A model generated the notes under the pieces. The model was not told where the DNA came from. It ran no database searches and saw only the letters and a program-made list of their open reading frames with translations. 64,000 nt of DNA from an uncultured Leptospirales bacterium. GTDB lineage: Bacteria; Spirochaetota; UBA4802; JAFGDQ01. Below, piece by piece: positions 3,137 through 59,211 of the stretch. The position numbers and the translations under genes were made by a program. The stretch lies in NCBI GenBank assembly GCA_964626055.1, contig CAZVDF010000010.1, positions 5,243 through 69,242 of the forward strand, written 5' to 3'. How positions within the stretch are numbered: the first letter of the stretch is position 1; each line of letters starts with the position of its first letter.

Positions 3137-3271
3137 GAAATGGCATTTTGCATAATTTGCGAGTATTGTTACCATATAAAAATATTTGTTGATAAATATT
3201 TAAAATAAGATAACCCTATTCGGACTATGTCGGCATTTTTCTATTCATATTTATCTCAAACTATAAAATCC

Positions 3272-4195
3272 ATGGTAAAATTATATATCATACTGATCTT
3301 AATGAGTCTTACGCAATGCACGACACTTCTTACAAAAAGCGACTATGCTACATCGGTTAAATATCTCGAGCAATGGGATGTCGATAAATCCCTTAAGCAT
3401 TTCCCAAAGGGAGAAAAAAACACCCTCATAACTGAAATGGAAAAGGCATATCTGAATCTTCTTTCCGGAAAGCCCGAAATCGACAGCCTTATAGAATTTG
3501 CCCGCAAAACAGACAACCAGATAAGAGTTAAAGCGTCAAGGGAGTTAAAATCGTTCTTTTACCTTGAAACTCCGGAAGGATATTACGCCTCCGAGCATGA
3601 AATAATATGGCTGCACCTGCTTTTGTCGTGGGGATATTCGATGCGGGGAGACCGCGGCAAAGCATATGTCGAAGCAAAGATATGCGCGAATCTGTTGAGC
3701 AATGAATGGAGCGTTGAAGGCCGTTTCGATGATCCGTTCATTCGGGTTCTTCTGGGCGCGATGTGGACCATGTGCGGCGAATGGGAAGAAGCGCAGGTCG
3801 ACTTCAGGGCGGCCTATAAGCTCGACAAGTCCATTCGATGGGCAAACACGCTCGGCGATATGAAGCAGCCGCCTGACAGGCTTATTATAATATTATGCGG
3901 GCCCGGACCCGAACCGGAATGGAATCCGGAATTAAAATCGAATCCCATAAGAGGGTTCAGAGGAATAAAATTCCGTCCTCGCGGGATCAAAAGCGCGCTT
4001 GTTTTAAAAGATAAAAATAATTATAATATTAATCTTTATCTTACTCCGGATTCTTCATACTGGTATAAACGGCATTTTATCAGGGATAACGAGATCCAGG
4101 ATCTTATTCAGGATACTAAATACGCCGAGAAAGCCGCGGGAAGCGGCGTAAAAATACAGGGCTTTTTGCGGCAAATGTGGCCGGCGGACTTCTGA
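3272..4195 (+). CDS. hypothetical lipoprotein with helical (TPR-like) body
   Basis: ORF 3227..4195. Internal Met at 3272 gives MVKLYIILILMSLTQC (signal plus lipobox Cys). No recognisable catalytic motif. Confidence 0.6.
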   Translation: MVKLYIILILMSLTQCTTLLTKSDYATSVKYLEQWDVDKSLKHFPKGEKNTLITEMEKAYLNLLSGKPEIDSLIEFARKTDNQIRVKASRELKSFFYLETPEGYYASEHEIIWLHLLLSWGYSMRGDRGKAYVEAKICANLLSNEWSVEGRFDDPFIRVLLGAMWTMCGEWEEAQVDFRAAYKLDKSIRWANTLGDMKQPPDRLIIILCGPGPEPEWNPELKSNPIRGFRGIKFRPRGIKSALVLKDKNNYNINLYLTPDSSYWYKRHFIRDNEIQDLIQDTKYAEKAAGSGVKIQGFLRQMWPADF

Positions 4196-6516: not shown

Positions 6517-6636
6517 ACTTAAGTTATGATTTGATAATATCTATGGAGCAGGCGACAGGGATGTCGCCGGAACGGCGTAAAACAGGATGTTTTTTACGCG
6601 GTTCCGAAATAGATATTATCAAGTCATAACTTAAGT
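6517..6636. repeat. singleton 120-bp palindromic element between hemB and hemL
   Basis: 28-nt arms ACTTAAGTTATGATTTGATAATATCTAT / ATAGATATTATCAAGTCATAACTTAAGT (one mismatch). They enclose GC-rich sub-hairpins GGCGACAGGGATGTCGCC and CGGAACGGCGTAAAA...TTTTACGCGGTTCCG. Confidence 0.8.
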
Positions 6637-8113: not shown

Positions 8114-8315
8114 GAAGCCATCCCATAATTAAAGATTCAAATAAGTGATTAACGATAAATAAGGATACACTAAAAAATTTTCTGCGGAATCAGACCTTCC
8201 TGGTAAGTATTCCATGCTTTTAAACGCTTTTGCATCAGGTCTGAAAGGCGTCCTCAAAAATTTTCTAGTGTATCCTTATTTATCAGTAAATAAAATATAA
8301 TTTTGAGATGGCTTC
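8114..8315 (+). repeat. family A nested-palindrome element, copy 1 (inner hairpin 8154..8284)
   Basis: Outer termini GAAGCCATCCCATAATT / AATTTTGAGATGGCTTC. Inner stem GATAAATAAGGATACACTA.../...TAGTGTATCCTTATTTATC. Conserved core CTGCGGAATCAGACCTTCCTGGT...GCATCAGGTCTGAAAGGCGTCCTCA. Confidence 0.85.
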
Positions 8316-8509
8316 TATATATTTGCCAATATCCCGAGAGCGCCGTGCAGGATACCGGTAATTAAAAGAGTGATCCCTGTTTTTTTATGTACTCCAATTT
8401 TAACCTGTATGATCCTCATACCGGAAAGGAACTGGAATATTAAAAGAAATAAATTGATTATTCCAAGTATCATAATTATTGATATTCCGAATATAGACAT
8501 GGTGAACAT
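8315..8509 (-). CDS. 64-aa two-TM membrane protein with His-x13-His on TM2
   Basis: AAGGAG RBS. Lies 17 nt downstream of the SOR-like gene on the same strand. Two hydrophobic helices, with H41 and H55. Confidence 0.55.
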   Translation of the reverse strand: MFTMSIFGISIIMILGIINLFLLIFQFLSGMRIIQVKIGVHKKTGITLLITGILHGALGILANI

Positions 8510-8526
8510 AAACTACTCCTTGAATG

Positions 8527-8907
8527 TTATTGTATCTCTATTTTCTTTTCGACTTTCCCCGTGCTTCCATGCAGGTTGCAGTTGCCCTCAGCTTCAATGA
8601 CGAGCTGGCCGCTGACTTCGGCTTTATAGCTTACCTCGCGTGTAAAATTTTCGTTTTCCGGCAGTTTCCCTGCGGAAAATTCCCAGCGGCCGATTTCCTT
8701 GCCATTGACCTTAACGTAGATCCAGTCCGTATGATGAATAAAATTATTCCCGCTGTGAGTTACATTAATCTTTATTTTTATTTCCGATCCTTTAGCGGCT
8801 TTATCCGGGGCGTCTATTATCACTGAAGTTTTATTGGCGAATAACGGCGAAGCTATTAAAAAAACGGAAATTATTATTGTAAAAAAAAGTCCATATTTAT
8901 TCAGCAT
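8527..8907 (-). CDS. exported superoxide-reductase-like (desulfoferrodoxin Fe-binding domain-like) protein
   Basis: GGAGG RBS 8 nt upstream. Sec-type signal MLNKYGLFFTIIISVFLIASPLFA. Motifs THSGNNFIHHTDWIYV and GNCNLHG resemble SOR centre ligand motifs. Confidence 0.6.
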   Translation of the reverse strand: MLNKYGLFFTIIISVFLIASPLFANKTSVIIDAPDKAAKGSEIKIKINVTHSGNNFIHHTDWIYVKVNGKEIGRWEFSAGKLPENENFTREVSYKAEVSGQLVIEAEGNCNLHGSTGKVEKKIEIQ

Positions 8908-8945
8908 GAATATTTCCTCCTGGAAAAATTAATATTAAATTATTA

Positions 8946-9236
8946 GAAGTCATCTCAAAATTATATTTCAATAGAAGACTTTAGTCAAGACTGATTTTTC
9001 AACGGCTTATCTCAGAAATAAGTACGACCCGATTAAAAAATATTATTTTATATGGACTATTTATGAAAAATCGAAATACATTACTAAATTTACTCCGGAA
9101 TCAGGCCTTCCTGGTTCATTTTTCTTATTTCAGAATGCTATTGCATCAGGCCCGAAAGGCGTCCTCATAAATTTAGTAATGTATTTCGATTTTTCAAACT
9201 ATAAAACCTAATTTTGAAATTACTTCTAATGTTTTC
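8946..9236 (+). repeat. family A element, copy 2 (inner hairpin 9065..9205; long left spacer)
   Basis: Outer termini GAAGTCATCTCAAAATT / AATTTTGAAATTACTTC. Inner stem GAAAAATCGAAATACATTACTAAATTTA and its complement. Subfamily-2 core (CTCCGGAATCAGGCC...CAGGCCCGAAAGGCGTCCTCAT). Confidence 0.8.
8960..8988 (-). promoter_or_regulatory. putative sigma70-type promoter of the SOR-like cassette
   Basis: On the minus strand, TTGACT (8988-8983), 17 nt, TATAAT (8965-8960). The -10 lies within the left outer terminus of family A copy 2. Confidence 0.55.
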
Positions 9237-14146: not shown

Positions 14147-16030
14147 ATGAAAGATTCTCTTTCCAGCTGGATTAAGATTTATCCGGAAAAATTCGTACCG
14201 GAAGAGGAGATTTTCCGTCACATTGGAAGAGGCTTTAAAATATTCATCAGCACTGGATGCGGCGAACCTGTCTACCTCGTAAGAGCGCTTGTCAGATATG
14301 TCGAGGAGCACCCCAAAGCCTTTGCCGATGCGGAAATTTTCCAGGTATGGACTCTCGGCATAGCAGTCTATACCGAAGAAAAATTCAATTATAATTTCAG
14401 GCACAACTCATTCTTTATAAGCGACAAATCAAGAGAATCTATCAATACGGGACTTGCCGATTATACGCCGATATTCCTCTCCCGCGTGCCCGATCTGCTG
14501 CGCAGAAAATACATCAAGTTCGACGCGGCACTTATACAGACATCCCTGCCCGACAGGAACGGGAACGTGAGTCTCGGCATAAGCGTCGATATCTGCAAAG
14601 CCGCAATAGAGAACGCAAGCCTTGTTATCGCCCAGATGAACCCCAGTATGCCGCGCGTGCACGGGGACACATTTATAAATATTAAAAATATTAATTATCT
14701 GATTCATCATGAAGAAAAGCTGCTTGAATATATGCCTACGGTTCCCAGCGAGATCGCGCAGCAGACGGGGAAATACGTCTCCAAGATAGTAAACGACGGC
14801 GATACGATACAGATAGGTTACGGGAGCCTGCCGAACGCCATATTGCAGAATCTTAAAGATAAAAAAGACCTCGGCATTCACTCCGAGCTTCTGACCGACG
14901 CTGTCGTTGAGCTTATTAGGCTTGGCGTCATCAATAACTCGAAAAAAACCATAGATCGCGGTAAAACGGTGGCTTCATTTTGCATGGCTACCGAACAAAC
15001 CTACAGATATATAGACGATAATCCCGAAATGGACTTCAGGACAATCGATTATACGAATGATCCGCTGGTGATTTCCCGCATTCACAACATGGTTGCGATC
15101 AATTCCGCGCTTGAGATAGATCTCACAGGGCAGGCAAGCGTTGAATCCATAAACGGCAAATTTTACAGCGGCATAGGAGGCAACGCCGATTTCATGCGCG
15201 GCGCAATACTCGCTCCCGGCGGGAAGACAATACTCGCAATAGAATCGACAGCCAGAAACGGACAGATTTCGCGCATCGTGCCTTCTCTTCAAAACGGCAC
15301 AGGCGTAACGCTTAACAGGGGCGACATATTTTATGTAGTGACGGAATACGGCATTGCATATCTCCACGGTAAAAACATACGCGAGCGCGCAATGGACCTG
15401 ATCGCCATCGCTCATCCGAAATTCAGAAGCCGGCTCATAGAAGAAGCGAAAAAATTGAACATCATTTACAAAGACCAGGCATATATTTCAGGCAAGAACG
15501 CCGAGTATCCGGAATATCTTGAAGAATACAGGACAATGAGAAGCGGCCTTATACTGTGGTTCAGGCCCGTCCGCATCAACGATGAAAGCCTGGTCAAGGA
15601 TTTCTTTTATTCACTCTCCGACCAGAGCCTTCAAAGACGATTCATGTCATTCAGGATAGACGTGCCTCATAAAGTAAGGCAGGAGTTCGTAGTAATCGAT
15701 TACACAAAAGAGCTGATCATACTTGCAACGACCATGCTTGAGCAAAAGGAACTCGTTGTGGGCATAGGCCAGATATCCAAGAACGAAAACACACTCTTTG
15801 CTGAAGTCGCCTTCGCCGTCAGGGACAACTATCAAAATCAGGGTATCGGATCAGAGCTCCTGGAGTACCTGACTATCATTGCAAAAAAAGAAGGTTTGCA
15901 TGGATTTACCGCTGAAGTACTGATGGAAAACCAGCCCATGCTCCATGTATTTGAAAAAATGGGCTTTAATATTCACCGGAAGCTCGAAGAAGGCGCTTAT
16001 AAGCTTATAATGAGATTTAATATTAATTAG
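14147..16030 (+). CDS. acetyl-CoA hydrolase/transferase-family domain fused to a C-terminal Pat-type GNAT acetyltransferase domain
   Basis: 627 aa. The N-terminal ~460 aa are CoA-transferase-like. The C-terminal ~155 aa (from about 15554) carry GNAT motif A, QNQGIGSELLEYL, in a Pat-like context. Confidence 0.8.
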   Translation: MKDSLSSWIKIYPEKFVPEEEIFRHIGRGFKIFISTGCGEPVYLVRALVRYVEEHPKAFADAEIFQVWTLGIAVYTEEKFNYNFRHNSFFISDKSRESINTGLADYTPIFLSRVPDLLRRKYIKFDAALIQTSLPDRNGNVSLGISVDICKAAIENASLVIAQMNPSMPRVHGDTFINIKNINYLIHHEEKLLEYMPTVPSEIAQQTGKYVSKIVNDGDTIQIGYGSLPNAILQNLKDKKDLGIHSELLTDAVVELIRLGVINNSKKTIDRGKTVASFCMATEQTYRYIDDNPEMDFRTIDYTNDPLVISRIHNMVAINSALEIDLTGQASVESINGKFYSGIGGNADFMRGAILAPGGKTILAIESTARNGQISRIVPSLQNGTGVTLNRGDIFYVVTEYGIAYLHGKNIRERAMDLIAIAHPKFRSRLIEEAKKLNIIYKDQAYISGKNAEYPEYLEEYRTMRSGLILWFRPVRINDESLVKDFFYSLSDQSLQRRFMSFRIDVPHKVRQEFVVIDYTKELIILATTMLEQKELVVGIGQISKNENTLFAEVAFAVRDNYQNQGIGSELLEYLTIIAKKEGLHGFTAEVLMENQPMLHVFEKMGFNIHRKLEEGAYKLIMRFNIN

Positions 16031-16048
16031 AAGCCATCTTAAAATTAT
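16030..16048 (+). repeat. solo family A left terminus
   Basis: GAAGCCATCTTAAAATTAT directly abuts the stop codon of the CoA-transferase/GNAT gene. No inner hairpin follows. Confidence 0.45.
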
Positions 16049-20531: not shown

Positions 20532-22166
20532 ATGAGTATGTTCTGTTTTCAATGCCAGGAAACCGTAAAAAACGAAGGATGCACGATCCGCGGCGTATGC
20601 GGGAAATACGAAGAAACGTCAAATCTTCAGGACCTGCTTTTATTTGTGTGCAGAGGGATTTCCGTCTTTGCCGCAGAATCTGCCGGGACGGGAAAACCGG
20701 ATAAAAACGCCGGCCGCTTTATCGTTAAAGCGTTATTTTCCACAATAACGAATGCGAATTTCGACAACAATAGAATTGCCGCTTTGATTAAGGAAGGGCT
20801 TGCCATACGCGAAGACCTGGAAAAGAAAAGCGCGTTGACCGGCGGTCTTCACGAGTCTGCAACATGGTTTGGCGACAGTACCGAAGAATTCAATGAAAAG
20901 GCAAAAGAAGTCGGCATACTTGCCACAAAAGACCCGGATGCGCGGTCGCTCCGCTCGCTTCTGCTGTTCGGGCTAAAAGGAATAGGCGCTTATGCGGAAC
21001 ACGCGGCCGTACTCGGATATGAGGACGACGGCATTTACAGTTTTCTTATGGAAGCGCTCGAGAGCACGACGAGAGACCTCACGGTTGACGAAATGATAAA
21101 CTGGGTCATGAAAGCCGGCGAAGCGGCGGTGAAGACCATGGCGCTCCTGGATAAGGCCAACACCGGAACATACGGGAATCCCGAGATCACAAAAGTAAAC
21201 ATCGGGGTAAGGAACAATCCCGGCATTCTCGTATCCGGTCATGATCTTAAAGATCTTCACGAACTTCTTGAACAGACCCGGGGCAAAGGCGTGGATGTCT
21301 ACACCCATGGCGAAATGCTGCCCGCGAATTACTATCCGGCATTTAAAAAATACGGCAATTTCGCGGGAAATTACGGCGGATCGTGGTGGCATCAGGACAG
21401 GGAATTCGATACATTCAACGGGCCGGTACTGATGACGACCAACTGCATAATCCCCGTGAAGGATTCCTATAAAGACAGGATATTCACCACAGGAATGGCC
21501 GGATATCCGGGTGTGCGGCATATCGAGGATCGCGATGACGGCGGGAAGAAAGATTTTTCCGTAATAATAGATCTTGCTAAAAAGTGCAAACCTCCTGTCG
21601 AGCTCGAAAGCGGTGAGATTGTCGGAGGATTTGCACACGAGCAGGTTTTTAAACTGGCTGATAAAATCGTGGAGGCGGTAAAATCCGGAGCCGTTAAGCG
21701 TTTTGTTGTAATGGCAGGATGCGACGGAAGGCAAAAGTCCAGGAATTATTTTACGGAGGTTGCGGAACAACTGCCCAAAGATGCGGTCATACTTACAGCA
21801 GGCTGCGCAAAATACAGGTACAACAAGCTAAAGCTCGGCGATATCGGCGGCATACCCCGCGTTCTCGACGCCGGTCAGTGCAACGACTCGTATTCGCTTG
21901 CAGTCATTGCGCTCAAGCTGAAGGAAATCTTAGGGGCAAAGGACGTGAACGAACTTCCAATATCTTTTGATATCGGCTGGTACGAACAGAAAGCGGTAGC
22001 AGTGCTTCTTGCGCTTTTATCTCTCGGGTTTAAAGGGATCAGGCTTGGGCCGACAATGCCGGCATTCCTGTCGCCGGCCGTAGTCAAAGTACTGGTTGAA
22101 AACTTCGGAATTAAACAGACAGAGGATCCGGAGAAGGATATTGACGCGATGATGGCTGGCAAATAA
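20532..22166 (+). CDS. hcp: hybrid cluster protein (hydroxylamine/NO reductase), class I
   Basis: 544 aa. N-terminal C-x2-C-x8-C-x5-C spacing ([22 protein letters not shown]). Confidence 0.93.
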
Positions 22167-22186
22167 AATTTCCGGGGCAAGCCCCC
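22161..22186 (+). repeat. family B element, 5' fragment (H1 only) containing the hcp stop codon
   Basis: AAATAAAATTTCCGGGGCAAGCCCCC. The TAA of hcp (22164-22166) lies inside the AAATAAAATT terminus. Confidence 0.6.
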
Positions 22187-31068: not shown

Positions 31069-31128
31069 GTAATTTATTCCGATTTACAGTCAATCGCTTA
31101 TATGAATCTATAATTTTAAAATGACTTC
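31069..31128 (+). repeat. family A right-half remnant
   Basis: GTAATTTATTCCGATTTA matches the copy-4 right inner stem (GTAATGTATTCCGATTTA) at 17 of 18 positions. It is followed by CTATAATTTTAAAATGACTTC. Confidence 0.6.
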
Positions 31129-31173
31129 TAATTAAAATCATTCGATATTTCGATATATTAATAGAGTATTATA

Positions 31174-31331
31174 ATAAAATTCCCCGGGGCAAGCCCCCGG
31201 TACTGACGTACCGGCCGCCACCTTCGGTGTTGGCGGGGTATTATGTTTCAAGGCGTTATCGATTTGCTCCGCAAATCGATTGGCTTTCATCCTCGACGCA
31301 AGCGTCAAGGTATTACGCCTTGAAATAAAAT
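31174..31331 (+). repeat. family B element, full copy (six hairpins)
   Basis: H1 GGGG-CAAG-CCCC. H2 CCGGTAC-TGAC-GTACCGG. H3 CCGCCA...TGGCGG. Closing stem TTTCAAGGCGT/ACGCCTTGAAA encloses ATCGATTTGC-TCC-GCAAATCGAT and CCTCGACGC-AA-GCGTCAAGG. Confidence 0.85.
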
Positions 31332-34645: not shown

Positions 34646-35632
34646 ATGGATAATAACGGTCAGCTTTCATTCTCGGACGATCCCCTTTCAAGCGGTATAA
34701 ACGAAGTTTACCAGTTCATTGAAGATGGCGATTTCAAACAGGCGATTCTGAAACTGGACGGACTGATGAATATGGATCCGGATTTCCGCGGGGTCACGGA
34801 AGCATACAGAGCCGCGAAGTTCTGGGCAAACCGGTCCGGTGAAATCGACAGCCTGCCCGAGGGAAAACAAACAGCGGATTTCTTAATGCGCGAGTGGGAA
34901 GATTTTAAGGTATACGCTGCCAATAACGATATGTCGGATTCCGCCGCGTTCATCTCCGCCATGAAATATGTTTTTTTTAACGCGTCAGAGAATTATAAAA
35001 CCGCTTTTAAAGAGCAGGAAAGCACGGCGGATAATTTCGATCTATTGCTGAATTTAGGAATGTGCTTTATTATTCTGAAAGAATATAAAGCATCGATTGA
35101 AACTCTCGAGTACGCAAGGAGTTCGAACAGAAACAGCGCCAGGCTGAATTCCCTGCTTGGGGAAGCCTATTTTAATTCAAATGAAATGTCGAGAAGCCTG
35201 CTGTTCTTCAAGGAAGCTTTCTTTATAAATCCTTCGGAAATAGACCTGTCCCCTTTAAAAGCAAAACCCATACTGGACCTGGTCGCAATCACAAAAGAAA
35301 AAAAGCCCGGGTCAAGCGATATCAGAGAATGGATGCCCGTATTCGGATTTACAAACGATATATTTTACTCGAGAAGAAATATCAACAGCGAGCAGATCGA
35401 GTCCATTAAACGGGAAATATACACACTTGAAAAGAACCTGCATGCTTTAAGCAAAGAAAAATCCGCCGAATCGAACATTATTCCCAGATTGATAAACAAG
35501 TATATCTGGATGCTCGATTATTTCCGGTTCCAGAACTATGATTACGAAAGCATTATGGAGATCAAGAACAGGCTGATCCAGCTTGACGGGGAAACCTTCG
35601 AAGGATATTTTAAAGAACACGAACTTAAATAA
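34646..35632 (+). CDS. hypothetical helical-repeat (TPR-like) protein
   Basis: 328 aa, 8 nt after the ATPase gene. Helical repeat composition only. Confidence 0.55.
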   Translation: MDNNGQLSFSDDPLSSGINEVYQFIEDGDFKQAILKLDGLMNMDPDFRGVTEAYRAAKFWANRSGEIDSLPEGKQTADFLMREWEDFKVYAANNDMSDSAAFISAMKYVFFNASENYKTAFKEQESTADNFDLLLNLGMCFIILKEYKASIETLEYARSSNRNSARLNSLLGEAYFNSNEMSRSLLFFKEAFFINPSEIDLSPLKAKPILDLVAITKEKKPGSSDIREWMPVFGFTNDIFYSRRNINSEQIESIKREIYTLEKNLHALSKEKSAESNIIPRLINKYIWMLDYFRFQNYDYESIMEIKNRLIQLDGETFEGYFKEHELK

Positions 35633-35643
35633 AGAAAATATTA

Positions 35644-38600
35644 TTATTTTTCGTCCAGGATCTCGCCTATTTTCTGAAGCAAATCGCCGGGCGTAATGGG
35701 CTTGGGCAAAAAATTAAATTCCTTATCCTGTATGCCTTTATCCAGAATAACATCCCTGGTATAACCGCTTGTAAATATGGTTTTGATGCCCGGTCTGAAT
35801 TTAAGCACCTCATCGTATACTTCCCTGCCGTTCTTTTTCGGCATTATAGTATCCACTATCATAAGATCGATATTTTTTATTTTCTTCGATTTTTCAACGG
35901 CATCCTCGCCGTCGACGGCTTCAATAATAGTATACCCGTAAGCGGTAAGTATCGTTTTCATCAGCTTTCTTACGCTTTCGTTATCCTCCGCAATCAGTAT
36001 CGTCTCGCCCCCTTTCCTGAATTGCCGCAACGCGGGTTTCACAGATTCTTCCGAAGTAATACTTAAAGGAAAATAAAGATGGAAAGTCGTTCCTGCATTT
36101 TTTTCGCTATGCACGCCGATATGCCCGCTGTGCTGTTTAATAATCCCGTACACTGTTGAAAGCCCCAGCCCGGTGCCCCTGCCGACCTCCTTGGTAGTAA
36201 AGAACGGATCGAAAATATGTTCGCGGATTTTTGCGTCCATCCCGATCCCCGTATCCGAAAAGGAAAGCAAAGCGTATTTTCCACGCTTCTCAAAACCGGT
36301 GGAATTTTTTTCCATATTCAATACGCGGGTTTCTATGGTTATAGTCCCGCCCTTCGGCATCGCATCCCTCGAATTGGTCGCAAGATTGAACAATATCTGG
36401 TCTATCTGCGAAGGATCGCCCAGTATCGTAGTATCATCCCCGGTCAGTTTCTTCTTAAGAACAATGTCTTCAGTTAAAAGGGTTGCCAGCAGTTTCTCGG
36501 TGCTATTTATGACTTCGTTCAGTTTAATGTTTTTTAAATTGATAGGGCGCTTCCTGCTGAACGATAAAAGCCCCTGAGTCAGGCTTGTCGCTTTTTCGGC
36601 GGATTCGACTATAAGATCAACATACTTTCTCATCGGATTGTCCGTCATTAATCCGCTCTGCAGAAGGGAGCCGTACCCGAGCATAACGCTGAGCATATTA
36701 TTGAAATCGTGCGCAATGCCTCCGACGAAAGTTCCGATGGCTTCCATCTTCTGAGCCTGGCGAAGATCGATCTGAAGTTTTTCCTTTTCCAGCTTGGCCT
36801 GAATATGTTTGGTTATATCGAAGGAAGAACCTTCGTAATAAAGAACCTTCCTGCCGGGATCGCGAACAGCGCGGGCATTTGTCGAAATCCATATTTTTAC
36901 GCCGTCTTTTCTGTAGACTTGATGTTCAAACGCGATCAGGGATTCGTTTTTTTCAAGAGTTCTGATAAACTTGACCTGATCCTCCGGGTTGACGAATAAT
37001 TGTCTTTTTATGTCCGTTATGCTCTTAATCAGTTCATCTGCCGATTCATACCCCAGCATTGAAACAAAAGACGGATTTACATTAATAAACTTTCCTTTGT
37101 AAGTGCACTGGAAAATCCCTTCAACAGATCTGTTGAAAATATCGCGATATTTCTCTTCGCTCACGCGAAGGGCTTCCTCCATTCGCATATGTTCCGTAAT
37201 ATCGCTTATCAAACCGTCGTAGGCAATCAGGCTGCCGCCTTCATAGCGTCTCACGGATGTATTTCTCACCCACCGTACTGTTCCGCTTTTATGAATTATA
37301 CGGTGCTCAATTGGCTTAACTTCTTCATTCCCGAGCACTTTTACCGACTGCTCAACAACCTTCTGCCTGTCGTTATCGTGTATCATTCTATACCACAGCA
37401 TGGGATCGAGCTCAAATTCACGCGAAGAATAGCCTGTTACCATGATACATCCCGGCCCGTGTTTCGTTGAGACGGGAATTCCATTTTCGATTCTGACCGT
37501 ATATATGTAATCCGTAACGGATTCTATAAGTTTTTTAAAGCGCTCCTCGCTTGCCCGCAGTTCTTCCTCTGTCCGCTTGCGTTCGGTTATATCCTGGGTA
37601 GTAAATACGACACCTGCCGATTTATCGTCAAGGTCTACCGCCGCGGCTGTGACATGGACATCCAGGATCCGGCCGTCTTTATGAATCCATTTGGTGTCTG
37701 TCTCGCCCACTTCCCCGTCCCATACTTTACCGTAAACTGCCTCTCCGACGCGCTTGAATTCTTCTTCGCTTAAATAAACATTTTTCGCGTTAAATTCAAG
37801 CTCTTCTATGGTATGGCCGGTTATATGTTTCATCCCGTCGTTTGTCCACGAGATTTTTCTGTCATTTGTTATCAGGGCTATGCCTACCGGCGCTGCGGCA
37901 AAAATTGACCCCATGGTCGCTTCGTTTCTTTTAAGGATTTCTTCCATCTGTTTTCGTTCCGTAATATCCTGCACGGTAAAAACCACACCTGCCGATTTAT
38001 CCTTATAATCTACTGCCCCAATACTGACATGGACGTCCAGTATCCTGCCGCCTTTATGAACCCATTTAGCGTCTGTCTCGCCGATTTTCCCTTCCCAAAC
38101 ATTTTTGTATACCAAATCCCCGACGCGTGAGAACTCCTCTTCTGTTTTATATAGTTCCCTTACGGCTTTGCCGCTCATTTCTTCCATTGAATAACCCGTT
38201 ATAGCGGCTATCCTGTCATTTCCCCACAGAATCTTCCTGTCATCCGTAAGAAATGCAATGCCGATCGGCAATGCGGCAAAAATGGATCTCATGGTCTCTT
38301 CGTTTCTTTTTACAGTTTCTTCCGCAGCCTTGCGCCGGGTTATATCCTGGGCGATAAAGACCACCCCGGCAGATCTGTCATTCGGGTCCAGGGCGGCGAC
38401 GCTGATATGGACGTCAAGAATGCGGCCGTCTTTATGCTTCCATCTGGCGTCTGTCTCCCCGACTTCTCCATTCCAGACTTTACTGTATATAACTTCTCCG
38501 ACGCGCTTATATTCTTCTTCGCTTAAATAAACTTTTTTCGGATCGTATCCGATCTCCGCCACTGTATGGCCGGTTATTAAAGGTTTTGTTTCATTGGCCC

Positions 38601-39513
38601 AGAGAAAATTCCTCTCCGGGCTCATCAGAGTGATATTAATAGGTGAAGCCGTGATAATAGATCTTAACGTGGCCTCGCTTCTCTTCAGCGCTTCTTCAGC
38701 CTGCCTGCGCTGCGATATATCAATTGCGGCCCCTATTATCCTGACAGGCTTGTCCGAACCGTCGCGGACCGTGAAGGAGCGATCTAAAACAAATGCATAG
38801 CTTCCGTCTGAACGCTGAAATCGATATTCGCACGATGAACTGAGCTCTCTTGCTTCAAGCATGACTTCAAGACTATTTTTAAACCGATCTCTGTCTTCCG
38901 GATGAATTTTTTCTATCCACCACTCGATTGTGGCCTCTCCAGCCGAATATCCGAATACGGACTGACAGGCTTCATTCAGCCACATGGTCTTCGAAGCCAG
39001 GTCCCAGTCATGAATTGCTTCGTTAATCGCTCTGGAATAAAGATTGAGACGCTCTTCTTTTTCCATGGACGTTTTTTCGGCTTCTTTGAATTCTGTAATA
39101 TCCGCGAAAGCCCCGACAATCCTGAGCGGACTGCCTGCTGCATTATATGTTACTATCTTCCCCCTGTTCAATATCCAGCGCCATACCCCGTTTTTTGCTT
39201 TAAGACGAATTGTGATCTTATGGCTTTCAATACGGTTCTCTTTGTAAAGGCTGATTATATCCCGCATCGGGGCTTTGTCTTCCGGGTGTACGTAATCAAA
39301 CAATGTTTCGAATGTTGGCGTTAATTTATAGGGTTTGTAACCCAGCATTTTATAAAAAAGAGGGCTTATATAGAGTTCTCCGGTCTCTATATTTAAATCA
39401 AAGATGCCGTTACCGGTAGCATCCAGCGCAAGCGCAAGTCTTTCTTCAGTTTTACTTAAAGTATGTTCTGTATCTTTTTGTATTGAGACATACTTTTTTT
39501 TGCCGTTTTTCAT
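35644..39513 (-). CDS. multi-PAS hybrid sensor histidine kinase / response regulator (HK1)
   Basis: 1289 aa. Multiple PAS modules, H-box GGIAHDFNNMLSV, HATPase G-boxes, C-terminal REC (ILIAEDNE...DLMIVDTIMPKKNG). Confidence 0.9.
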   Translation of the reverse strand: MKNGKKKYVSIQKDTEHTLSKTEERLALALDATGNGIFDLNIETGELYISPLFYKMLGYKPYKLTPTFETLFDYVHPEDKAPMRDIISLYKENRIESHKITIRLKAKNGVWRWILNRGKIVTYNAAGSPLRIVGAFADITEFKEAEKTSMEKEERLNLYSRAINEAIHDWDLASKTMWLNEACQSVFGYSAGEATIEWWIEKIHPEDRDRFKNSLEVMLEARELSSSCEYRFQRSDGSYAFVLDRSFTVRDGSDKPVRIIGAAIDISQRRQAEEALKRSEATLRSIITASPINITLMSPERNFLWANETKPLITGHTVAEIGYDPKKVYLSEEEYKRVGEVIYSKVWNGEVGETDARWKHKDGRILDVHISVAALDPNDRSAGVVFIAQDITRRKAAEETVKRNEETMRSIFAALPIGIAFLTDDRKILWGNDRIAAITGYSMEEMSGKAVRELYKTEEEFSRVGDLVYKNVWEGKIGETDAKWVHKGGRILDVHVSIGAVDYKDKSAGVVFTVQDITERKQMEEILKRNEATMGSIFAAAPVGIALITNDRKISWTNDGMKHITGHTIEELEFNAKNVYLSEEEFKRVGEAVYGKVWDGEVGETDTKWIHKDGRILDVHVTAAAVDLDDKSAGVVFTTQDITERKRTEEELRASEERFKKLIESVTDYIYTVRIENGIPVSTKHGPGCIMVTGYSSREFELDPMLWYRMIHDNDRQKVVEQSVKVLGNEEVKPIEHRIIHKSGTVRWVRNTSVRRYEGGSLIAYDGLISDITEHMRMEEALRVSEEKYRDIFNRSVEGIFQCTYKGKFINVNPSFVSMLGYESADELIKSITDIKRQLFVNPEDQVKFIRTLEKNESLIAFEHQVYRKDGVKIWISTNARAVRDPGRKVLYYEGSSFDITKHIQAKLEKEKLQIDLRQAQKMEAIGTFVGGIAHDFNNMLSVMLGYGSLLQSGLMTDNPMRKYVDLIVESAEKATSLTQGLLSFSRKRPINLKNIKLNEVINSTEKLLATLLTEDIVLKKKLTGDDTTILGDPSQIDQILFNLATNSRDAMPKGGTITIETRVLNMEKNSTGFEKRGKYALLSFSDTGIGMDAKIREHIFDPFFTTKEVGRGTGLGLSTVYGIIKQHSGHIGVHSEKNAGTTFHLYFPLSITSEESVKPALRQFRKGGETILIAEDNESVRKLMKTILTAYGYTIIEAVDGEDAVEKSKKIKNIDLMIVDTIMPKKNGREVYDEVLKFRPGIKTIFTSGYTRDVILDKGIQDKEFNFLPKPITPGDLLQKIGEILDEK
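37573..38697 (-). repeat. in-frame tandem triplication (period 375-378 nt) of a PAS module inside HK1
   Basis: GTCTGTCTC(G/C) recurs at 37696, 38071 and 38449. The three ~125-aa units share ...GETDAxWxHKxGRILDVHV...KSAGVVFxxQDITxRK. Confidence 0.85.
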
Positions 39514-39856: not shown

Positions 39857-39947
39857 TTTTATTTCAAGGCGTAATACCCCGCCGACACGGAAGGTGGCGG
39901 CCGGTATGTCACCTTCAGCCGGGGTGTTGCCCCGGGGAATTTTATTT
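39857..39947 (-). repeat. family B element, short variant (lacks 72-nt H4-H6 segment), contains the HK2 stop codon
   Basis: Reverse complement reads AAATAAAATTCCCCGGGGCAACACCCCGG...CCGGCCGCCACCTTCCGTGTCGGCGGGGTATTACGCCTTGAAATAAAAT. Confidence 0.8.
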
Positions 39948-42900
39948 CCTGTCCAGCATCTCTCCTACTTTATAAAGCAGCTTTTTAGGGGTAACCGGCT
40001 TTGAAATAAAGTCGAATTCCTTTTCTTCTATGCCTTTATCGAGAATTACATCGCGTGTGTATCCGCTTGTGAACAATACTTTAACCTTGGGATTAATCTT
40101 GATTATTTCGTTGTACACTTCCCTGCCGTTCTTTTTCGGCATTACTGAATCAATTATTACCAGGTCCGCTTTTTTATTTCTGCGGAATTTTTCAATCGCA
40201 TCCTGGCCGTCCACAGCTTCAATAATCTGATAGCCGTATCTGGCGAGTATTTTCTTAATCAGCAATCTGACTCCTTCATTATCTTCGGCGACAATGATCT
40301 TCTCGTTCCCGGACCTGATCTTCGGGCTGGCTTTCTTTTTTTCTTTTCCCATCCTTTTTGCAGAAGGGAAATATATATGGAAAGCTGTGCCTATATTAAG
40401 CTCGCTGTATACGTTTATATAGCCGTTATGCTGCTTTACAATGCCATATACCGTGGAGAGCCCGAGGCCTGTTCCTTTGCCCACTTCCTTTGTCGTAAAG
40501 AAAGGATCGAAAATGTGCTCCCTGGAATCCTTATCAATTCCAACTCCCGTATCCGATACCGAGAGAAGGACATATTTGCCGGGTTTGCCGTAACCGACAA
40601 GATTAAAAAATTCCTTATCGAGCTCGACAACGCTTGTTTCAATTAGTAACGTCCCGCCTTTAGGCATAGCGTCTCTCGCGTTTGTCAGGAGATTGAACAA
40701 TATTTGATCTATCTGCGTGGGATCTCCCAAAATACTTGTATTTTCTTTTGTCAGTTTTTCCTTTAATAAAATGTCTTCCGTAAGCAGACGCTTTAATAAT
40801 TTTTTTGTCCCTTTAATGGCGTCATTCAATTCTAACTGCGTTAAATTAATGGCCTGTTTTCTGCCGAATGCAAGAAGCCCCTGGGTCAGACCGGTGGCTT
40901 TCTCCGAAGACGAAAGTATGAGATCCGCATAACTGCGCAGAGGATTATCTTTATCCAGTTCCATCTGCAAAAGAGTGGCGTATCCGACAATAATGCTTAA
41001 TATGTTGTTAAAATCGTGCGCTATTCCTCCGACGAAAGTCCCCAGGGCTTCCATTTTCTGAGCCTGGCGAAGCTGGGCATATAGCTTCTCCTTATCCTCT
41101 TCATCCTGCTTGCGTCTGGTAATATTATCAGCTATGCCTTCAAAATAAAGCACTTTCCCGTCTTTATCTCTGACTGCGCGGGCATTTACAGATATCCATA
41201 TTTTATTGCCGTCTTTTCTGTAAAGCTCATGTTCGAATCCGAATATTGTACCGGCCTTTTTAAGCGTTTCCTCAAAGAATGCAGCCGCTTCTTCTTGGAC
41301 AAACAACTGTTTCTGAATATTATTGATACTCTCGATTAATTCCTTCGGCGAATCGTATCCCAGCATAGCCGCAAATGAAGGATTAATATCTAAAAATTTT
41401 CCTCCGGTGCTGCTCTGAAAAATCCCCTCGACAGCCCTTTCGAATATATCGCGGTATTTCTCTTCGCTTACGCGCAGGGCTTCCTCCGCCATCTTACGAG
41501 CAGTAATATCCTGCACAATGCCCTCCTCCTTTTTCACCTGTCCGGCTTCATCAAAACTGGAGCGGCCTTTAACTCTTAACCAGCGGATTTCCCCATCAGG
41601 ACATTTGATGCGGTATTCGACTTCAATGATTCCGAAATCTTTCCCTGTCCATGTATTTGCCTTCTTCACGGCTTCAACAAGTGTTTCTTTATCAATGATA
41701 TTAAATATCTTCGGTATCCCGATCTCGTCCAATTCTACTACCGGGGTATCCGGCGGAAAACCGTATATGGCAAGATGTTCCTGCGAAAGGTATAGCTTAC
41801 CAGTCCGCAAGTCGAATGAATAAGTTCCGAAATTGGCCGCTTCCGCCGCATTGCGCAGACGTTCCTCGTTTTCGCGCAGGGCTTCCTCCGCTTTCCTGCG
41901 TTCCGTTATATCCATCCCGAATGAGATTATGCCGGTGACTTTTCCCTGTTCCCGCACTAAATTATTCCGCCATACTATATAACGCTCCTCGCCGGTTTTA
42001 GTTAAAATGGGATTTTCAAAACGCATCGGCGGTCCGCCATCGCTCAATCGCTCAAATTCCGTCCATACTTCCTGGTACCGGTCCCTGGGAACGATTGTTT
42101 CAAACCAGTTTTTCTTTTTCAATTCCTCGCGGGTATAGCCTGTGATCTCCCGGGCGGCCTGGTTGAAAACGGTTATAAATCCCTTTAGATCAAGCCCCAC
42201 CACGATCGTATTGGCGGTCTGGATCAGATTTTCCGCGTAATCTTTGGCTGACTGCAAAGCTGTCTCCGCCTGCTTCCGTTCGGTTATATCGCTTATAATC
42301 CCGTCATAGCCGATAAATTTCCCATCCGGATCATGATGCGGCACTGGAGTATTCCTCACCCAGCGAATCGTGCCGTTTTTATGTATTATTCGATGCTCAA
42401 CGGCACGCACTTCTTTGCCCGCAAGAATACCGTTTGTCTGTTCAGCCACAGTATCTCTGTCCGCCTCGTATATCATCCTGTACCAGAGATAAGGATCTGC
42501 GGCAAATTCATGAGGAGAATAACCAGTCAGCGCCATGCAGGCCGGGCCGTGCTGTGTGGATACCGGCCGGTTATCTTCGATCTTTACGCTGTAAATATAA
42601 TCGCTAACCGAATCCAGAAGCTGTTTATAGCGTTCCTCGCTTTCCAGGATTGCTTCTTCAAACTGCTTTCGTCTGGTAATGTCGACATGCTGGATTATTG
42701 CGTTTGTTATTTTACCCTCCGCGTCCCGGATCGGGAAGATGGTCACATCAATAATTACAAACACATGATGCTTCAGTTTAATATTTTTCAGCTCCGCGCT
42801 CTTATATTTAAGCTCGAATTTTGCCGTCTCGCCGGATTCGTATACTTTCTTTACAAGAGGCATATATCCCTGTTCTTTTACAATATTGTCGCTAAAAATA

Positions 42901-43874
42901 TTGTACTTGCCTAAAACATCTTCTTCGGATAAATGCAACAATTCCAGACAGGCTTTATTGATCTTTATAAGCGTGCCCTTTTCATCCGAAATCCACATCG
43001 GGATCGGGCTTTGATTTATAATGCTGTTAAGAAAGGATTCGGAGGATGCCAGCGCTTCTTCATAACGTTTCCGCTCCGTTGTGTTCACAAGCATTGCAAT
43101 ATTTCCGTTGACAATCCCATTCGGATCGCGGAGCGGGGAAGCATAAAGTGTGTAGCTGATAGGAGTTCCGTCCTTACGGTGCCGTGACAGGTCAATACCG
43201 ATAACAGACTGCCCGGATTTAATGGCTTCTCTTAACTTTTTAAACTCCCTTTTAGCGGCTTCCGTCTGAACGCTCGGCAGGAAATGGCCTATCGCTTCTT
43301 CTTTTGTCCATCCCAGCATCTGCTCGGCTGCCGGATTCCATATGCTTTGAACTATCCCGTCCTCAGTGAGATCGAATATGGCGACAGGAAGCGAATCCAG
43401 CACTGCCCGTAATGTGTCCTTTGCTTTATACAGCGTCCCATTGAAATGTCTGCGCTGCGTAATGTCGCGCAAAAAAGCCAGCATGCGGTCAAGCTCGCGG
43501 TAATATGTTACGCTGATCTCAATATCTATAACATGGCCGTCTTTATGCTTCAGCCTCGATTCAAAAATATCGGAGCCGTACTTTTTTATCTTTAGTATAT
43601 GAGCCCTGACTTCATCCGGCGTCTCTATCATTTCAAGATCGCCGATGGTCATATCAAGAAGCTCATCCTCGCTGTAACCGACCATTCGGCAAAAAGTATT
43701 ATTTACTTCAATAAGCTTACCATCCGTATCGGCAGCCCAGAATCCATCCATTGAAGTGCCGGTGAGGATATGATACTGTTCGGCATAAATGCGCAGCAGA
43801 TCGCTCTCGCTGTGTGAGCCGGAAGATGTTTCGGATACGGGTTTTTTTATAATATTTTTCCTTATATTTTTCAT
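39942..43874 (-). CDS. multi-PAS hybrid sensor histidine kinase / response regulator (HK2, paralogue of HK1)
   Basis: 1310 aa. Same C-terminal architecture as HK1 (GGIAHDFNNILSI, REC with DLVIIDSVMPKKNG). Confidence 0.9.
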   Translation of the reverse strand: MKNIRKNIIKKPVSETSSGSHSESDLLRIYAEQYHILTGTSMDGFWAADTDGKLIEVNNTFCRMVGYSEDELLDMTIGDLEMIETPDEVRAHILKIKKYGSDIFESRLKHKDGHVIDIEISVTYYRELDRMLAFLRDITQRRHFNGTLYKAKDTLRAVLDSLPVAIFDLTEDGIVQSIWNPAAEQMLGWTKEEAIGHFLPSVQTEAAKREFKKLREAIKSGQSVIGIDLSRHRKDGTPISYTLYASPLRDPNGIVNGNIAMLVNTTERKRYEEALASSESFLNSIINQSPIPMWISDEKGTLIKINKACLELLHLSEEDVLGKYNIFSDNIVKEQGYMPLVKKVYESGETAKFELKYKSAELKNIKLKHHVFVIIDVTIFPIRDAEGKITNAIIQHVDITRRKQFEEAILESEERYKQLLDSVSDYIYSVKIEDNRPVSTQHGPACMALTGYSPHEFAADPYLWYRMIYEADRDTVAEQTNGILAGKEVRAVEHRIIHKNGTIRWVRNTPVPHHDPDGKFIGYDGIISDITERKQAETALQSAKDYAENLIQTANTIVVGLDLKGFITVFNQAAREITGYTREELKKKNWFETIVPRDRYQEVWTEFERLSDGGPPMRFENPILTKTGEERYIVWRNNLVREQGKVTGIISFGMDITERRKAEEALRENEERLRNAAEAANFGTYSFDLRTGKLYLSQEHLAIYGFPPDTPVVELDEIGIPKIFNIIDKETLVEAVKKANTWTGKDFGIIEVEYRIKCPDGEIRWLRVKGRSSFDEAGQVKKEEGIVQDITARKMAEEALRVSEEKYRDIFERAVEGIFQSSTGGKFLDINPSFAAMLGYDSPKELIESINNIQKQLFVQEEAAAFFEETLKKAGTIFGFEHELYRKDGNKIWISVNARAVRDKDGKVLYFEGIADNITRRKQDEEDKEKLYAQLRQAQKMEALGTFVGGIAHDFNNILSIIVGYATLLQMELDKDNPLRSYADLILSSSEKATGLTQGLLAFGRKQAINLTQLELNDAIKGTKKLLKRLLTEDILLKEKLTKENTSILGDPTQIDQILFNLLTNARDAMPKGGTLLIETSVVELDKEFFNLVGYGKPGKYVLLSVSDTGVGIDKDSREHIFDPFFTTKEVGKGTGLGLSTVYGIVKQHNGYINVYSELNIGTAFHIYFPSAKRMGKEKKKASPKIRSGNEKIIVAEDNEGVRLLIKKILARYGYQIIEAVDGQDAIEKFRRNKKADLVIIDSVMPKKNGREVYNEIIKINPKVKVLFTSGYTRDVILDKGIEEKEFDFISKPVTPKKLLYKVGEMLDRK

Positions 43875-44904: not shown

Positions 44905-45144
44905 GAATCCATTTCGAAAAAATTAATTAATATGCGTAGCTATAAGTTATATTTATAATATGTTTTTCTTTTAAATAAATCTAAATACATTACAGAATTT
45001 TCTGCGGAATCAGACCTTCCTGGTTAGTTTTTCATATTTTTGGCAGCTGTTGCATCAGGTCTGAAAGGCGTCCTCAAAAATTTTGTAATGTATTTAGATT
45101 TATTGATAATTATTTAGAATAATATTATATTTTAAAATGACTTC
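44905..45144 (+). repeat. family A element, copy 3 (inner hairpin 44974..45104), between exbB and exbD
   Basis: Degenerate left terminus GAATCCATTTCGAAAAAATTA. Right terminus ATTTTAAAATGACTTC. Inner stem AATAAATCTAAATACATTACAGAATTTT and its complement. Subfamily-1 core. Confidence 0.8.
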
Positions 45145-47536: not shown

Positions 47537-47695
47537 AAAATAAAATTCCCCGGGGCAAGCCCCCGGTACTAACGTACCGGCTGCCACCTTTGGTGTCGGC
47601 GGGGTATTATGTTTCAAGGCGTTATCGATTTGCTCCGCAAATCGATAGGCTTGCATCCTCGACGCAAGCGTCGAGGTATTACGCCTTGAAATAAA
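47537..47695 (+). repeat. family B element, full copy
   Basis: Collinear with 31174..31331 with scattered substitutions. The H6 stem is perfect here (CCTCGACGC/GCGTCGAGG). Confidence 0.85.
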
Positions 47696-53459: not shown

Positions 53460-53662
53460 GGACTCCGTCTCATCAATATTAACTTTGATGAGTAAGTAGC
53501 AATATATCGGAATACATTACAAAATTTACTCCGGAATCAGGCCTTCCTGGTTAGTTTTTTATGTTTTCGAAAGCTGCTGCATCAGGCCTGAAAGGCGTCC
53601 TCATAAATTCTGTAATGTATTCCGATTTATCAAAGTATAAAATCAAATTTTGAGATGATTCC
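53460..53662 (+). repeat. family A element, copy 4 (inner hairpin 53506..53626), between batC and batD
   Basis: Right terminus AAATTTTGAGATGATTCC; left terminus degenerate. Inner stem ATCGGAATACATTACAAAATTTA and its complement. Subfamily-2 core. Confidence 0.8.
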
Positions 53663-59015: not shown

Positions 59016-59211
59016 TAAGTGATCTTAAAATAATTTTTTTAAGATAAATTGGGATACATTACAAAATTTTCTGCGGAATACCTTCCTGGTCAGTCTAATA
59101 TGTTTCCGAACGCAATTACATCAGATCTGAAAGGCGTCCTCAAAAACTTTGTAATTTATCCCAATTTATTGATGATCATTCAATATTTATAAATAATTTT
59201 GAGATAACTTC
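59016..59211 (+). repeat. family A element, copy 5 (inner hairpin 59044..59169), between dnaX and ybaB
   Basis: Termini TAAGTGATCTTAAAATAAT / AATAATTTTGAGATAACTTC. Inner stem ATAAATTGGGATACATTACAAAATTTT and its complement (one mismatch). Core has a 3-nt deletion. Confidence 0.8.

Follow-up and report, generated by a model that had tools for sequence, protein, structure and literature searches.

Family A, a TA-flanked, hairpin-shaped MITE with a flippable core in uncultivated Spirochaetota

Correia elements (CREE/NEMIS) of Neisseria are small intergenic elements of 100–160 bp with terminal inverted repeats (TIRs) and TA flanks. They carry an internal conserved site and −10-like hexamers at their ends, form a long hairpin if transcribed and exist as end and arm variants. 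Plant Stowaway MITEs are derived from Tc1/mariner elements. Both Stowaway and the 107-bp RUP element of Streptococcus pneumoniae are non-coding, carry short TIRs, insert at TA and are present in many copies, and for both, movement in trans by a transposase of the IS630/Tc1-mariner type is presumed (PMC2229807). RUP is derived from a known parent IS, IS630-Spn1, with which its TA targets are paired, and the internal site of Correia is an IHF site (PMC2229807). Dispersed imperfect palindromes are also found as ERIC/IRU and as bcr1 in the Bacillus cereus group; bcr1 has 5-bp direct repeats and hairpin-preserving compensatory base changes, which were read as RNA-level compensation (PMC3184786). 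REPINs and the IS200/IS605-derived PATEs are hairpin-forming, multi-copy and intergenic, have neither TIRs nor target duplication, and depend on HUH enzymes. REPINs are inverted pairs of 20–40 nt GTAG-headed REPs, with a RAYT gene flanked by REPs, and PATEs have subterminal hairpins and strand-specific insertion. An unusual richness in MITEs has been reported for spirochaetes (PMC11602168).

The element analysed here, Family A, is a real, non-coding, hairpin-shaped MITE from uncultivated Spirochaetota, new and as yet without a name. It joins the well-known kind of TA-flanked hairpin MITEs and is distinguished by a flippable core and conserved internal boxes. The initial annotation of this DNA had named Correia-type and REPIN-type elements as the closest analogies. 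The first analogy was found to be apt: the copies of Family A are small, non-coding and dispersed between genes, with TIRs and flanking TA. At about 200 bp it is longer than Correia, with which it also shares an internal conserved site, −10-like hexamers at the ends, a long hairpin predicted to form on transcription, and variant ends and arms. The likeness is one of architecture only: no relationship in sequence is apparent, the host belongs to another phylum, and Family A shows no recognisable IHF consensus. Unlike Correia, Family A carries an extra inner inverted repeat of 25–27 bp around an asymmetric, flippable core. With RUP and Stowaway it shares short TIRs, a non-coding body and many copies, and probably also insertion at TA and a presumed IS630/Tc1-mariner mover in trans. 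RUP has no nested hairpin-plus-core, whereas Family A has both, and the parent of Family A was not found in the 165 kb examined. Like bcr1 and ERIC/IRU, Family A consists of dispersed imperfect palindromes, and like bcr1 it shows hairpin-preserving compensatory changes; in contrast to bcr1, these changes have no RNA-strand preference and the loop is inverted in some copies. The REPIN analogy did not hold. Family A is hairpin-forming, multi-copy and intergenic as REPINs and PATEs are, but its ends are TIRs flanked by TA and its copies contain no REP unit with a GTAG head. The analogy failed on the TIRs, the TA flanks and the REP heads. Strand-specific insertion of the PATE type is at odds with two copies about 13 kb apart that have opposite cores.

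The anatomy was read from an alignment of all copies plus their flanks. From end to end, the order is TA, TIR, arm, helix-1 5′ strand, box 1, apex, box 2, helix-1 3′ strand, arm, TIR and TA. Thus all three layers described in the initial annotation (inverted termini, inner hairpin and asymmetric core) are present. The TIR is 19–20 bp long with the consensus (C/G)AAGYCATCTCAAAAWTAT, and its reverse complement stands at the other end. Eight TIR matches were counted in the window (the whole stretch of 64 000 nt that was analysed) against 0.12 expected, and copies in the metagenome-assembled genomes (MAGs) described below carry the same termini. A TATAAT hexamer, reading outward, lies inside each terminus. 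TA stands immediately outside both termini in about 10 of the 12 complete copies, and could belong to the terminus instead of being a duplication. These TA flanks, found on most complete copies, had gone unremarked before. The arms are AT-rich and unequal, the long one being about 10 nt longer than the short one. Helix 1 is a near-perfect inner inverted repeat of 25–27 bp. Between its arms lies an asymmetric core of about 75 nt, with two conserved boxes, CTSCGGAATCAGRCCTTCCTGGT (box 1) and GCATCAGGYCTGAAAGGCGTCCTCA (box 2), separated by a variable apex of about 26 nt. Since the core is asymmetric, every copy has a clear orientation. Folding z-scores are −8 to −9.6 on either strand.

Copies were located in the window with R1, a covariance model built from 19 copies, which was applied to the entire window with all filters disabled. 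Five copies were found and no more, scoring 122–153 bits on the + strand and 46–51 bits on the − strand. A 24-nt core string, CATCAGGTCTGAAAGGCGTCCTCA, occurs at 8233, 9144, 45053, 53580 and 59119, always on the + strand, with 0 occurrences expected (shuffled sequence gives none); box 1 and the terminal repeat are also far above chance. Core string and model therefore agree on the five full copies, at about the coordinates proposed beforehand. Copy 1 (8114–8315, + strand, 148 bits) is complete. It starts with the left TIR (8114–8132), followed by the long arm to about 8154, the helix-1 5′ arm (8155–8181), box 1 (8182–8204), the variable apex (8205–8230), box 2 (8231–8256) and the helix-1 3′ arm (8257–8283), and ends with the short arm and the right TIR (8297–8315), after which TA stands. 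Copy 2 had been drawn as 8946–9236. The element itself is confirmed, but these bounds are composite: they join a solo terminus (TA|GAAGTCATCTCAAAATTAT, 8946–8964, + strand) to the element proper, which begins about 58 nt further on and runs from about 9004 to 9226 (+ strand, 147 bits). Copy 2 belongs to the TTTACTCCGG/CATAAA subfamily and has its long arm on the left, a degenerate left terminus (about 9004–9026), box 1 at 9093–9115, box 2 at 9142–9167 and the right TIR at 9208–9226, then TA. In copy 3 (44905–45144, + strand, 153 bits; box 1 45002–45024, box 2 45051–45076), the left arm is the short one and the right arm the long one; compared with copies 1, 2 and 4, its core is therefore inverted with respect to the arms. 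An ExbD-family gene starts 18 nt past the end of this copy. Copy 4 (53460–53662, + strand, 150 bits; box 1 53529–53551, box 2 53578–53603) is a second member of the TTTACTCCGG/CATAAA subfamily; its TIRs are degenerate and its left arm is the long one. Copy 5 (59016–59211, + strand, 122 bits) again has the short arm on the left and an inverted core; its box 1 is shortened by a 3-nt deletion, box 2 lies at 59117–59142 and the right TIR at 59193–59211. Two further pieces lack the core: a remnant at 31069–31128, in which half of helix 1 survives together with a long arm and a TIR, TA coming next, and a solo terminus (TA|GAAGCCATCTTAAAATTAT) at 16030–16048 with no recognisable element body. As their ends are symmetric and the core is missing, neither can be oriented.

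Beyond the window, a pattern scan over one genome per species gave 14 loci, 12 of them in the MAG 'Spirochaetes bacterium Zod_Metabat.878' and 2 in 'Spirochaetota bacterium MEGAHIT-group-0.510'. Profile and covariance-model searches of these 14 loci added one further copy, bringing the MAG copies to 16 and the total to 21 copies over three genomes. Each copy is 190–250 bp long. There is no coding capacity: the sole ORF is a spurious one of 42 aa, and indels in the apex disrupt every reading frame. Every copy is intergenic, often 10–40 nt from a gene end. The window itself is ordinary chromosome, with heme biosynthesis, flagellar, TonB/ExbD and similar genes. Four MAG contigs terminate within a Family A element, as is typical for a high-copy repeat, and the MAGs are fragmented because contigs break at the repeat. 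In public data the window genome is represented by Logan contigs of 1–2.5 kb that are likewise broken within the element. One MAG copy is nested, having been inserted at a TA in the stem of another copy. The earlier description of the element as MITE-like is thus borne out by its TIRs, TA flanks, small non-coding body and dispersed intergenic copies, and by the contig breaks and the nested insertion. Like the initial annotation, which could assign the element to no named family, the Rfam search gave no match: at gathering thresholds three tRNAs passed in the window and nothing for Family A, and a permissive search returned generic long-hairpin microRNA models alone (14–34 bits against thresholds of 83–211). 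A pattern scan of JGI metagenomes returned 11 matches, all chance matches in GC-rich coding DNA. Two patterns gave no match in viral contigs, BLAST gave none in plasmids and phages, and a full-text literature search with box and TIR strings retrieved only an unrelated primer. No synteny was found between the window loci and the MAG loci.

Complementarity of the stems was analysed on an author-specified structure, in which standard pairs were counted in 96.3% of 695 cells. Both-sided changes affect 12 pairs (37 cells), of which 11 are in helix 1 and one is in the inner TCAGRCC/GGYCTGA helix. The observed pairing and covariation values were attained in none of 500 shuffles, and pairing fell to 32–48% when the 3′ partner was shifted by one to three columns. 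Stem complementarity is actively maintained. The copy-specific complementary basal stems quoted in the initial annotation are real, and so are both of its paired subfamily substitutions. From the covariation, that annotation had argued for selection on the fold itself, as RNA or ssDNA, a conclusion that the mismatches do not bear out. A folded RNA would accept G·T on its own strand and reject A·C. On the + strand, G·T and T·G occupy 12 cells (about 8 independent events) and A·C and C·A occupy 10. G·T is thus no commoner than A·C, there is no RNA-strand signal and the covariation does not show that an RNA fold is selected. Transversions, which have no wobble intermediate, make up many of the compensated changes. 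Within a copy the helix-1 arms are 88–100% complementary, whereas the two TIRs are less alike (a qualitative comparison only), which fits a process acting on the closely spaced inner repeat. The pair within the core, TCAGACC/GGTCTGA versus TCAGGCC/GGCCTGA, also covaries; arm-to-arm conversion is less plausible for this 7–8 bp repeat with a spacer of about 40 nt.

The arrangement of core and arms bears on the same question. The long arm is 5′ of the core in window copies 1, 2 and 4 and in MAG copies L001, L005a, L005b, L006, L007 and L012; the short arm is 5′ of the core in window copies 3 and 5 and in L002, L010 and L011. The core is therefore flipped in about one third of all copies, window copies 3 and 5 among them, and by arm orientation the window copies split 3:2. 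When L010 is read with its core in register, the core matches those of L005a and L001 and the arms are swapped. When the core of L010 is reverse-complemented instead, the copy matches L005a and L001 nearly base for base, in both arms and both helix-1 strands. A segment of about 75 nt between the helix-1 arms has thus been inverted among very close relatives. Template switching is known to yield compensatory stem changes and loop inversions in single events (PMC8794818). Together, the mismatch balance and the core inversion fit a DNA-level process, either template switching or arm-to-arm conversion, which would explain the complementary stems, the missing wobble bias and the flips.

Conservation is concentrated in the boxes. 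Among the five window copies, which were picked by no search pattern, mean pairwise identity is 0.90 for box 1 and 0.93 for box 2, against 0.76–0.79 for helix 1, 0.60 for the apex and 0.56–0.57 for the arms. The search pattern itself prescribed 23 of the box positions in the MAG copies, but the box positions that it left free are nearly invariant too. The boxes are also more constrained than the TIRs. This would not be expected of an element in which mobility depends on the ends alone, and it leaves room for a role of the boxes at each locus through exaptation by the host. Most likely, the boxes form a putative duplex-DNA protein-binding site needed for propagation, comparable to the Correia IHF site. 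Alternatively, they may have been conserved through a lower mutation rate, being GC-richer and non-repetitive compared with the slippage-prone A/T runs, through host exaptation, or as part of a structured RNA or ssDNA. The boxes showed no known binding motif, a promoter and terminator scan of the core gave nothing above the shuffled expectation, and no convincing promoter was found in or beside the core. Several readings of the core were tried by eye and rejected: hammerhead, hairpin-ribozyme, sigma-54 and IHF, whose consensus positions do not fit, and a short peptide, for which neither the apex ATG nor the frame is conserved. A candidate apex helix, AUGY/RCAU, was not significant.

Taken as a whole, these features are probably best explained by a MITE that is moved in trans, whose helix-1 arms are kept complementary and core flipped at the DNA level, and whose boxes are a putative protein site. 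Under this model the element would insert at TA and duplicate it, through a cut-and-paste transposase of the IS630/Tc1-mariner type that is yet to be seen. The TA flanks fit such an enzyme, but some IS5 subgroups make AT-rich duplications of 2–3 bp, and a source among these is also conceivable. The arms of the inner repeat would be kept complementary by replication template switching or by gene conversion on the hairpin or cruciform, and the same arm-to-arm events would now and then flip the core. The two boxes would be a double-stranded site for a host or transposase protein, which might bend the element of about 200 bp so that its ends meet, as proposed for the Correia IHF site; such a site would function in either orientation. 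As for an autonomous element, no terminus pair encloses an ORF in the 165 kb examined. The window was said to hold no transposase gene, and a partial check agrees: its ten transposase-sized ORFs are housekeeping genes or have no Pfam match.

Orientation relative to replication was considered separately. All five window cores are on the + strand (two-sided p = 0.0625), most likely by chance, although five of five cores on one strand (p = 0.06) should not be dismissed altogether. The initial annotation had given the same orientation to seven occurrences. This stands for the five cores; the other two are the coreless remnants, which cannot be oriented, and the arms are split 3:2. It had also placed the neighbouring genes on both strands, which is correct: the copies are intergenic with neighbours both ways, and relative to these genes the cores are sense, antisense, convergent or divergent with no pattern. 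GC skew, against which it had been proposed to plot orientation, was uninformative. Both GC and AT skew follow the local gene strand in the window, as GC skew also does in the MAG loci, so that replication direction is not revealed and there is no replichore signal. On the MAG contig JAFGSG010000052.1, the L010 and L001 blocks appear to be adjacent, a 316-aa ORF crossing their junction; no such ORF was present in four control pairings of blocks. L010 and L001 are about 13 kb apart and have the same arm orientation but opposite core orientations, and an origin or terminus within this interval is unlikely. With only the five window cores in its favour and opposite cores in a related MAG, a core orientation locked to replication is not supported, and neither is the coupling to replication or ssDNA that had been suggested. 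It is nevertheless conceivable, if doubtful, that the boxes and inverted repeat are a functional module kept by selection at each locus, with its orientation selected relative to replication or to a chromosome-wide polarity. Such a module might be DNA bound by a protein, or else ssDNA or RNA with a structure of its own. If true, this would explain the five same-strand cores despite the mixed arms, with flipping as the means of resetting orientation.

Other explanations share part of this evidence. The inner hairpin and core could act as structured RNA, be it a small RNA or an mRNA element working in cis, with the + strand fold under selection and the MITE as its vehicle. In its favour are a strong fold (z = −8 to −9.6), covarying stems and unpaired boxes conserved next to a variable apex; box 1 also holds a weak hairpin that resembles a terminator, with a U run after it, and the bcr1 repeat offers a precedent for RNA-level compensatory changes (PMC3184786). 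The candidate apex pair is found as U-A, C-G and U·G and never as C·A, but with about 1 expected the missing C·A is not significant. Wobble pairs are unbiased between the strands, the Rfam matches are generic long-hairpin microRNA models far under their thresholds, and there is no convincing promoter in or beside the core. Moreover, the orientation of the core varies relative to genes and arms, so that a read-through transcript would carry either strand. A structured RNA is therefore unlikely. Mobility through ssDNA in the style of REPIN/RAYT or of the IS200/IS605-derived PATEs, in which recognition of the hairpin by an HUH enzyme on the lagging-strand template would fix the orientation relative to replication, would account for five window cores on one strand, and for complementarity kept without wobble tolerance, as DNA would keep it. 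Against it, Family A has true TIRs and TA on both flanks, which the REPIN and PATE families lack, and no GTAG-type REP head; a single MAG contig has opposite cores at a distance of about 13 kb, cores are also found flipped with respect to the arms, and no HUH gene was seen in a non-exhaustive search. This makes ssDNA mobility highly improbable.

The flips themselves admit two further readings. In an inverton, the inner inverted repeat and core would be a multi-copy switch whose boxes are recognised by a recombinase; conserved boxes bracketed by a perfect inverted repeat, and both core orientations between otherwise near-identical arms, have the look of one. The flips are, however, known between paralogous copies, where template switching or homologous exchange of palindromes explains them equally well, the core has no promoter, and no recombinase gene was identified beside any copy, so that there is very little chance of a switch of this kind. 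Alternatively, an inner hairpin that is mobile in its own right may have entered an older outer MITE, in one orientation or the other. This nested composite, though very unlikely, would fit the layered architecture, the two orientations of the core relative to the arms, and the four copies (L008, L009, L013 and L014) in which the inner module is kept and the outer termini have decayed. Those copies were found via the core pattern and are a biased sample, and they retain recognisable arms; in the 165 kb examined there is neither an outer MITE without the inner module nor a free inner module. A trans-mobilized MITE, with helix-1 arms kept complementary and core flipped at the DNA level, is the preferred explanation.

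A loop inverted between near-identical copies is the signature of template switching or arm exchange at the DNA level, and Family A illustrates clearly that a hairpin repeat may show compensatory changes that are no proof of a selected RNA fold. With it, a MITE family is added to a little-studied lineage of uncultivated spirochaetes. If the conservation of its boxes reflects a host function, Family A would be domesticated repeat DNA.

One Family A element (a MITE of about 190-250 bp with terminal inverted repeats) was found nested in another at MAG locus L005 (7640-7700 and 7446-7637, - strand). The inserted copy, which is without its right terminus, lies at a TA within the left arm of helix 1, the 25-27 bp inner inverted repeat, of the other. 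At locus L010, the copy at 2027-2159 carries its core flipped relative to the arms. In this copy, one helix-1 arm reads GT where AC is expected, the dinucleotide itself being inverted, and this GT may be a trace that the inversion event left at its switch points.

A second long hairpin of Family A layout is present in the window at 6517-6636 (DNA fold z = -11). It was matched at 32 bits by R1, the covariance model of Family A. Its inverted repeat, ACTTAAGTTATGATTTGATAATATCTAT, is AT-rich, perfect and 28 bp long, and encloses an asymmetric, GC-richer core of 64 nt with two small stem-loops. This hairpin occurs once in all the DNA examined (165 kb).

Family B is a repeat family distinct from Family A. 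Its two long copies (31170-31329 and 47539-47695) are 96% identical to each other and start with AAAATTCCCCGGGGCAAGCCCCCGGTACTGACGTACCGGC; partial copies lie at 382-426, 39858-39946 (- strand) and 22162-22186. Only 40 nt separate the coreless Family A remnant at 31069-31128 from a Family B copy on its right.

Two paralogous ORFs, each about 1300 aa long, lie side by side on the - strand (35644-39513 and 39942-43874), and both contain internal repeats of 375-390 nt, which are the direct-repeat families D2, D4, D5, D8, D11 and D12. On the + strand, the ORFs of 322 aa (3227-4195) and 328 aa (34646-35632) gave no match in a Pfam search at E <= 1e-5, and Family A termini flank neither of them.

At 8960-8988 on the - strand lies a sigma-70-like site close to the consensus, TTGACT-17-TATAAT (11 of 12 positions matching), which faces the - strand gene at 8527-8907. 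It is partly built from the solo Family A terminus at 8946-8964. Since TATAAT lies within the consensus of the terminal inverted repeat, all Family A copies bear -10-like hexamers facing outward.
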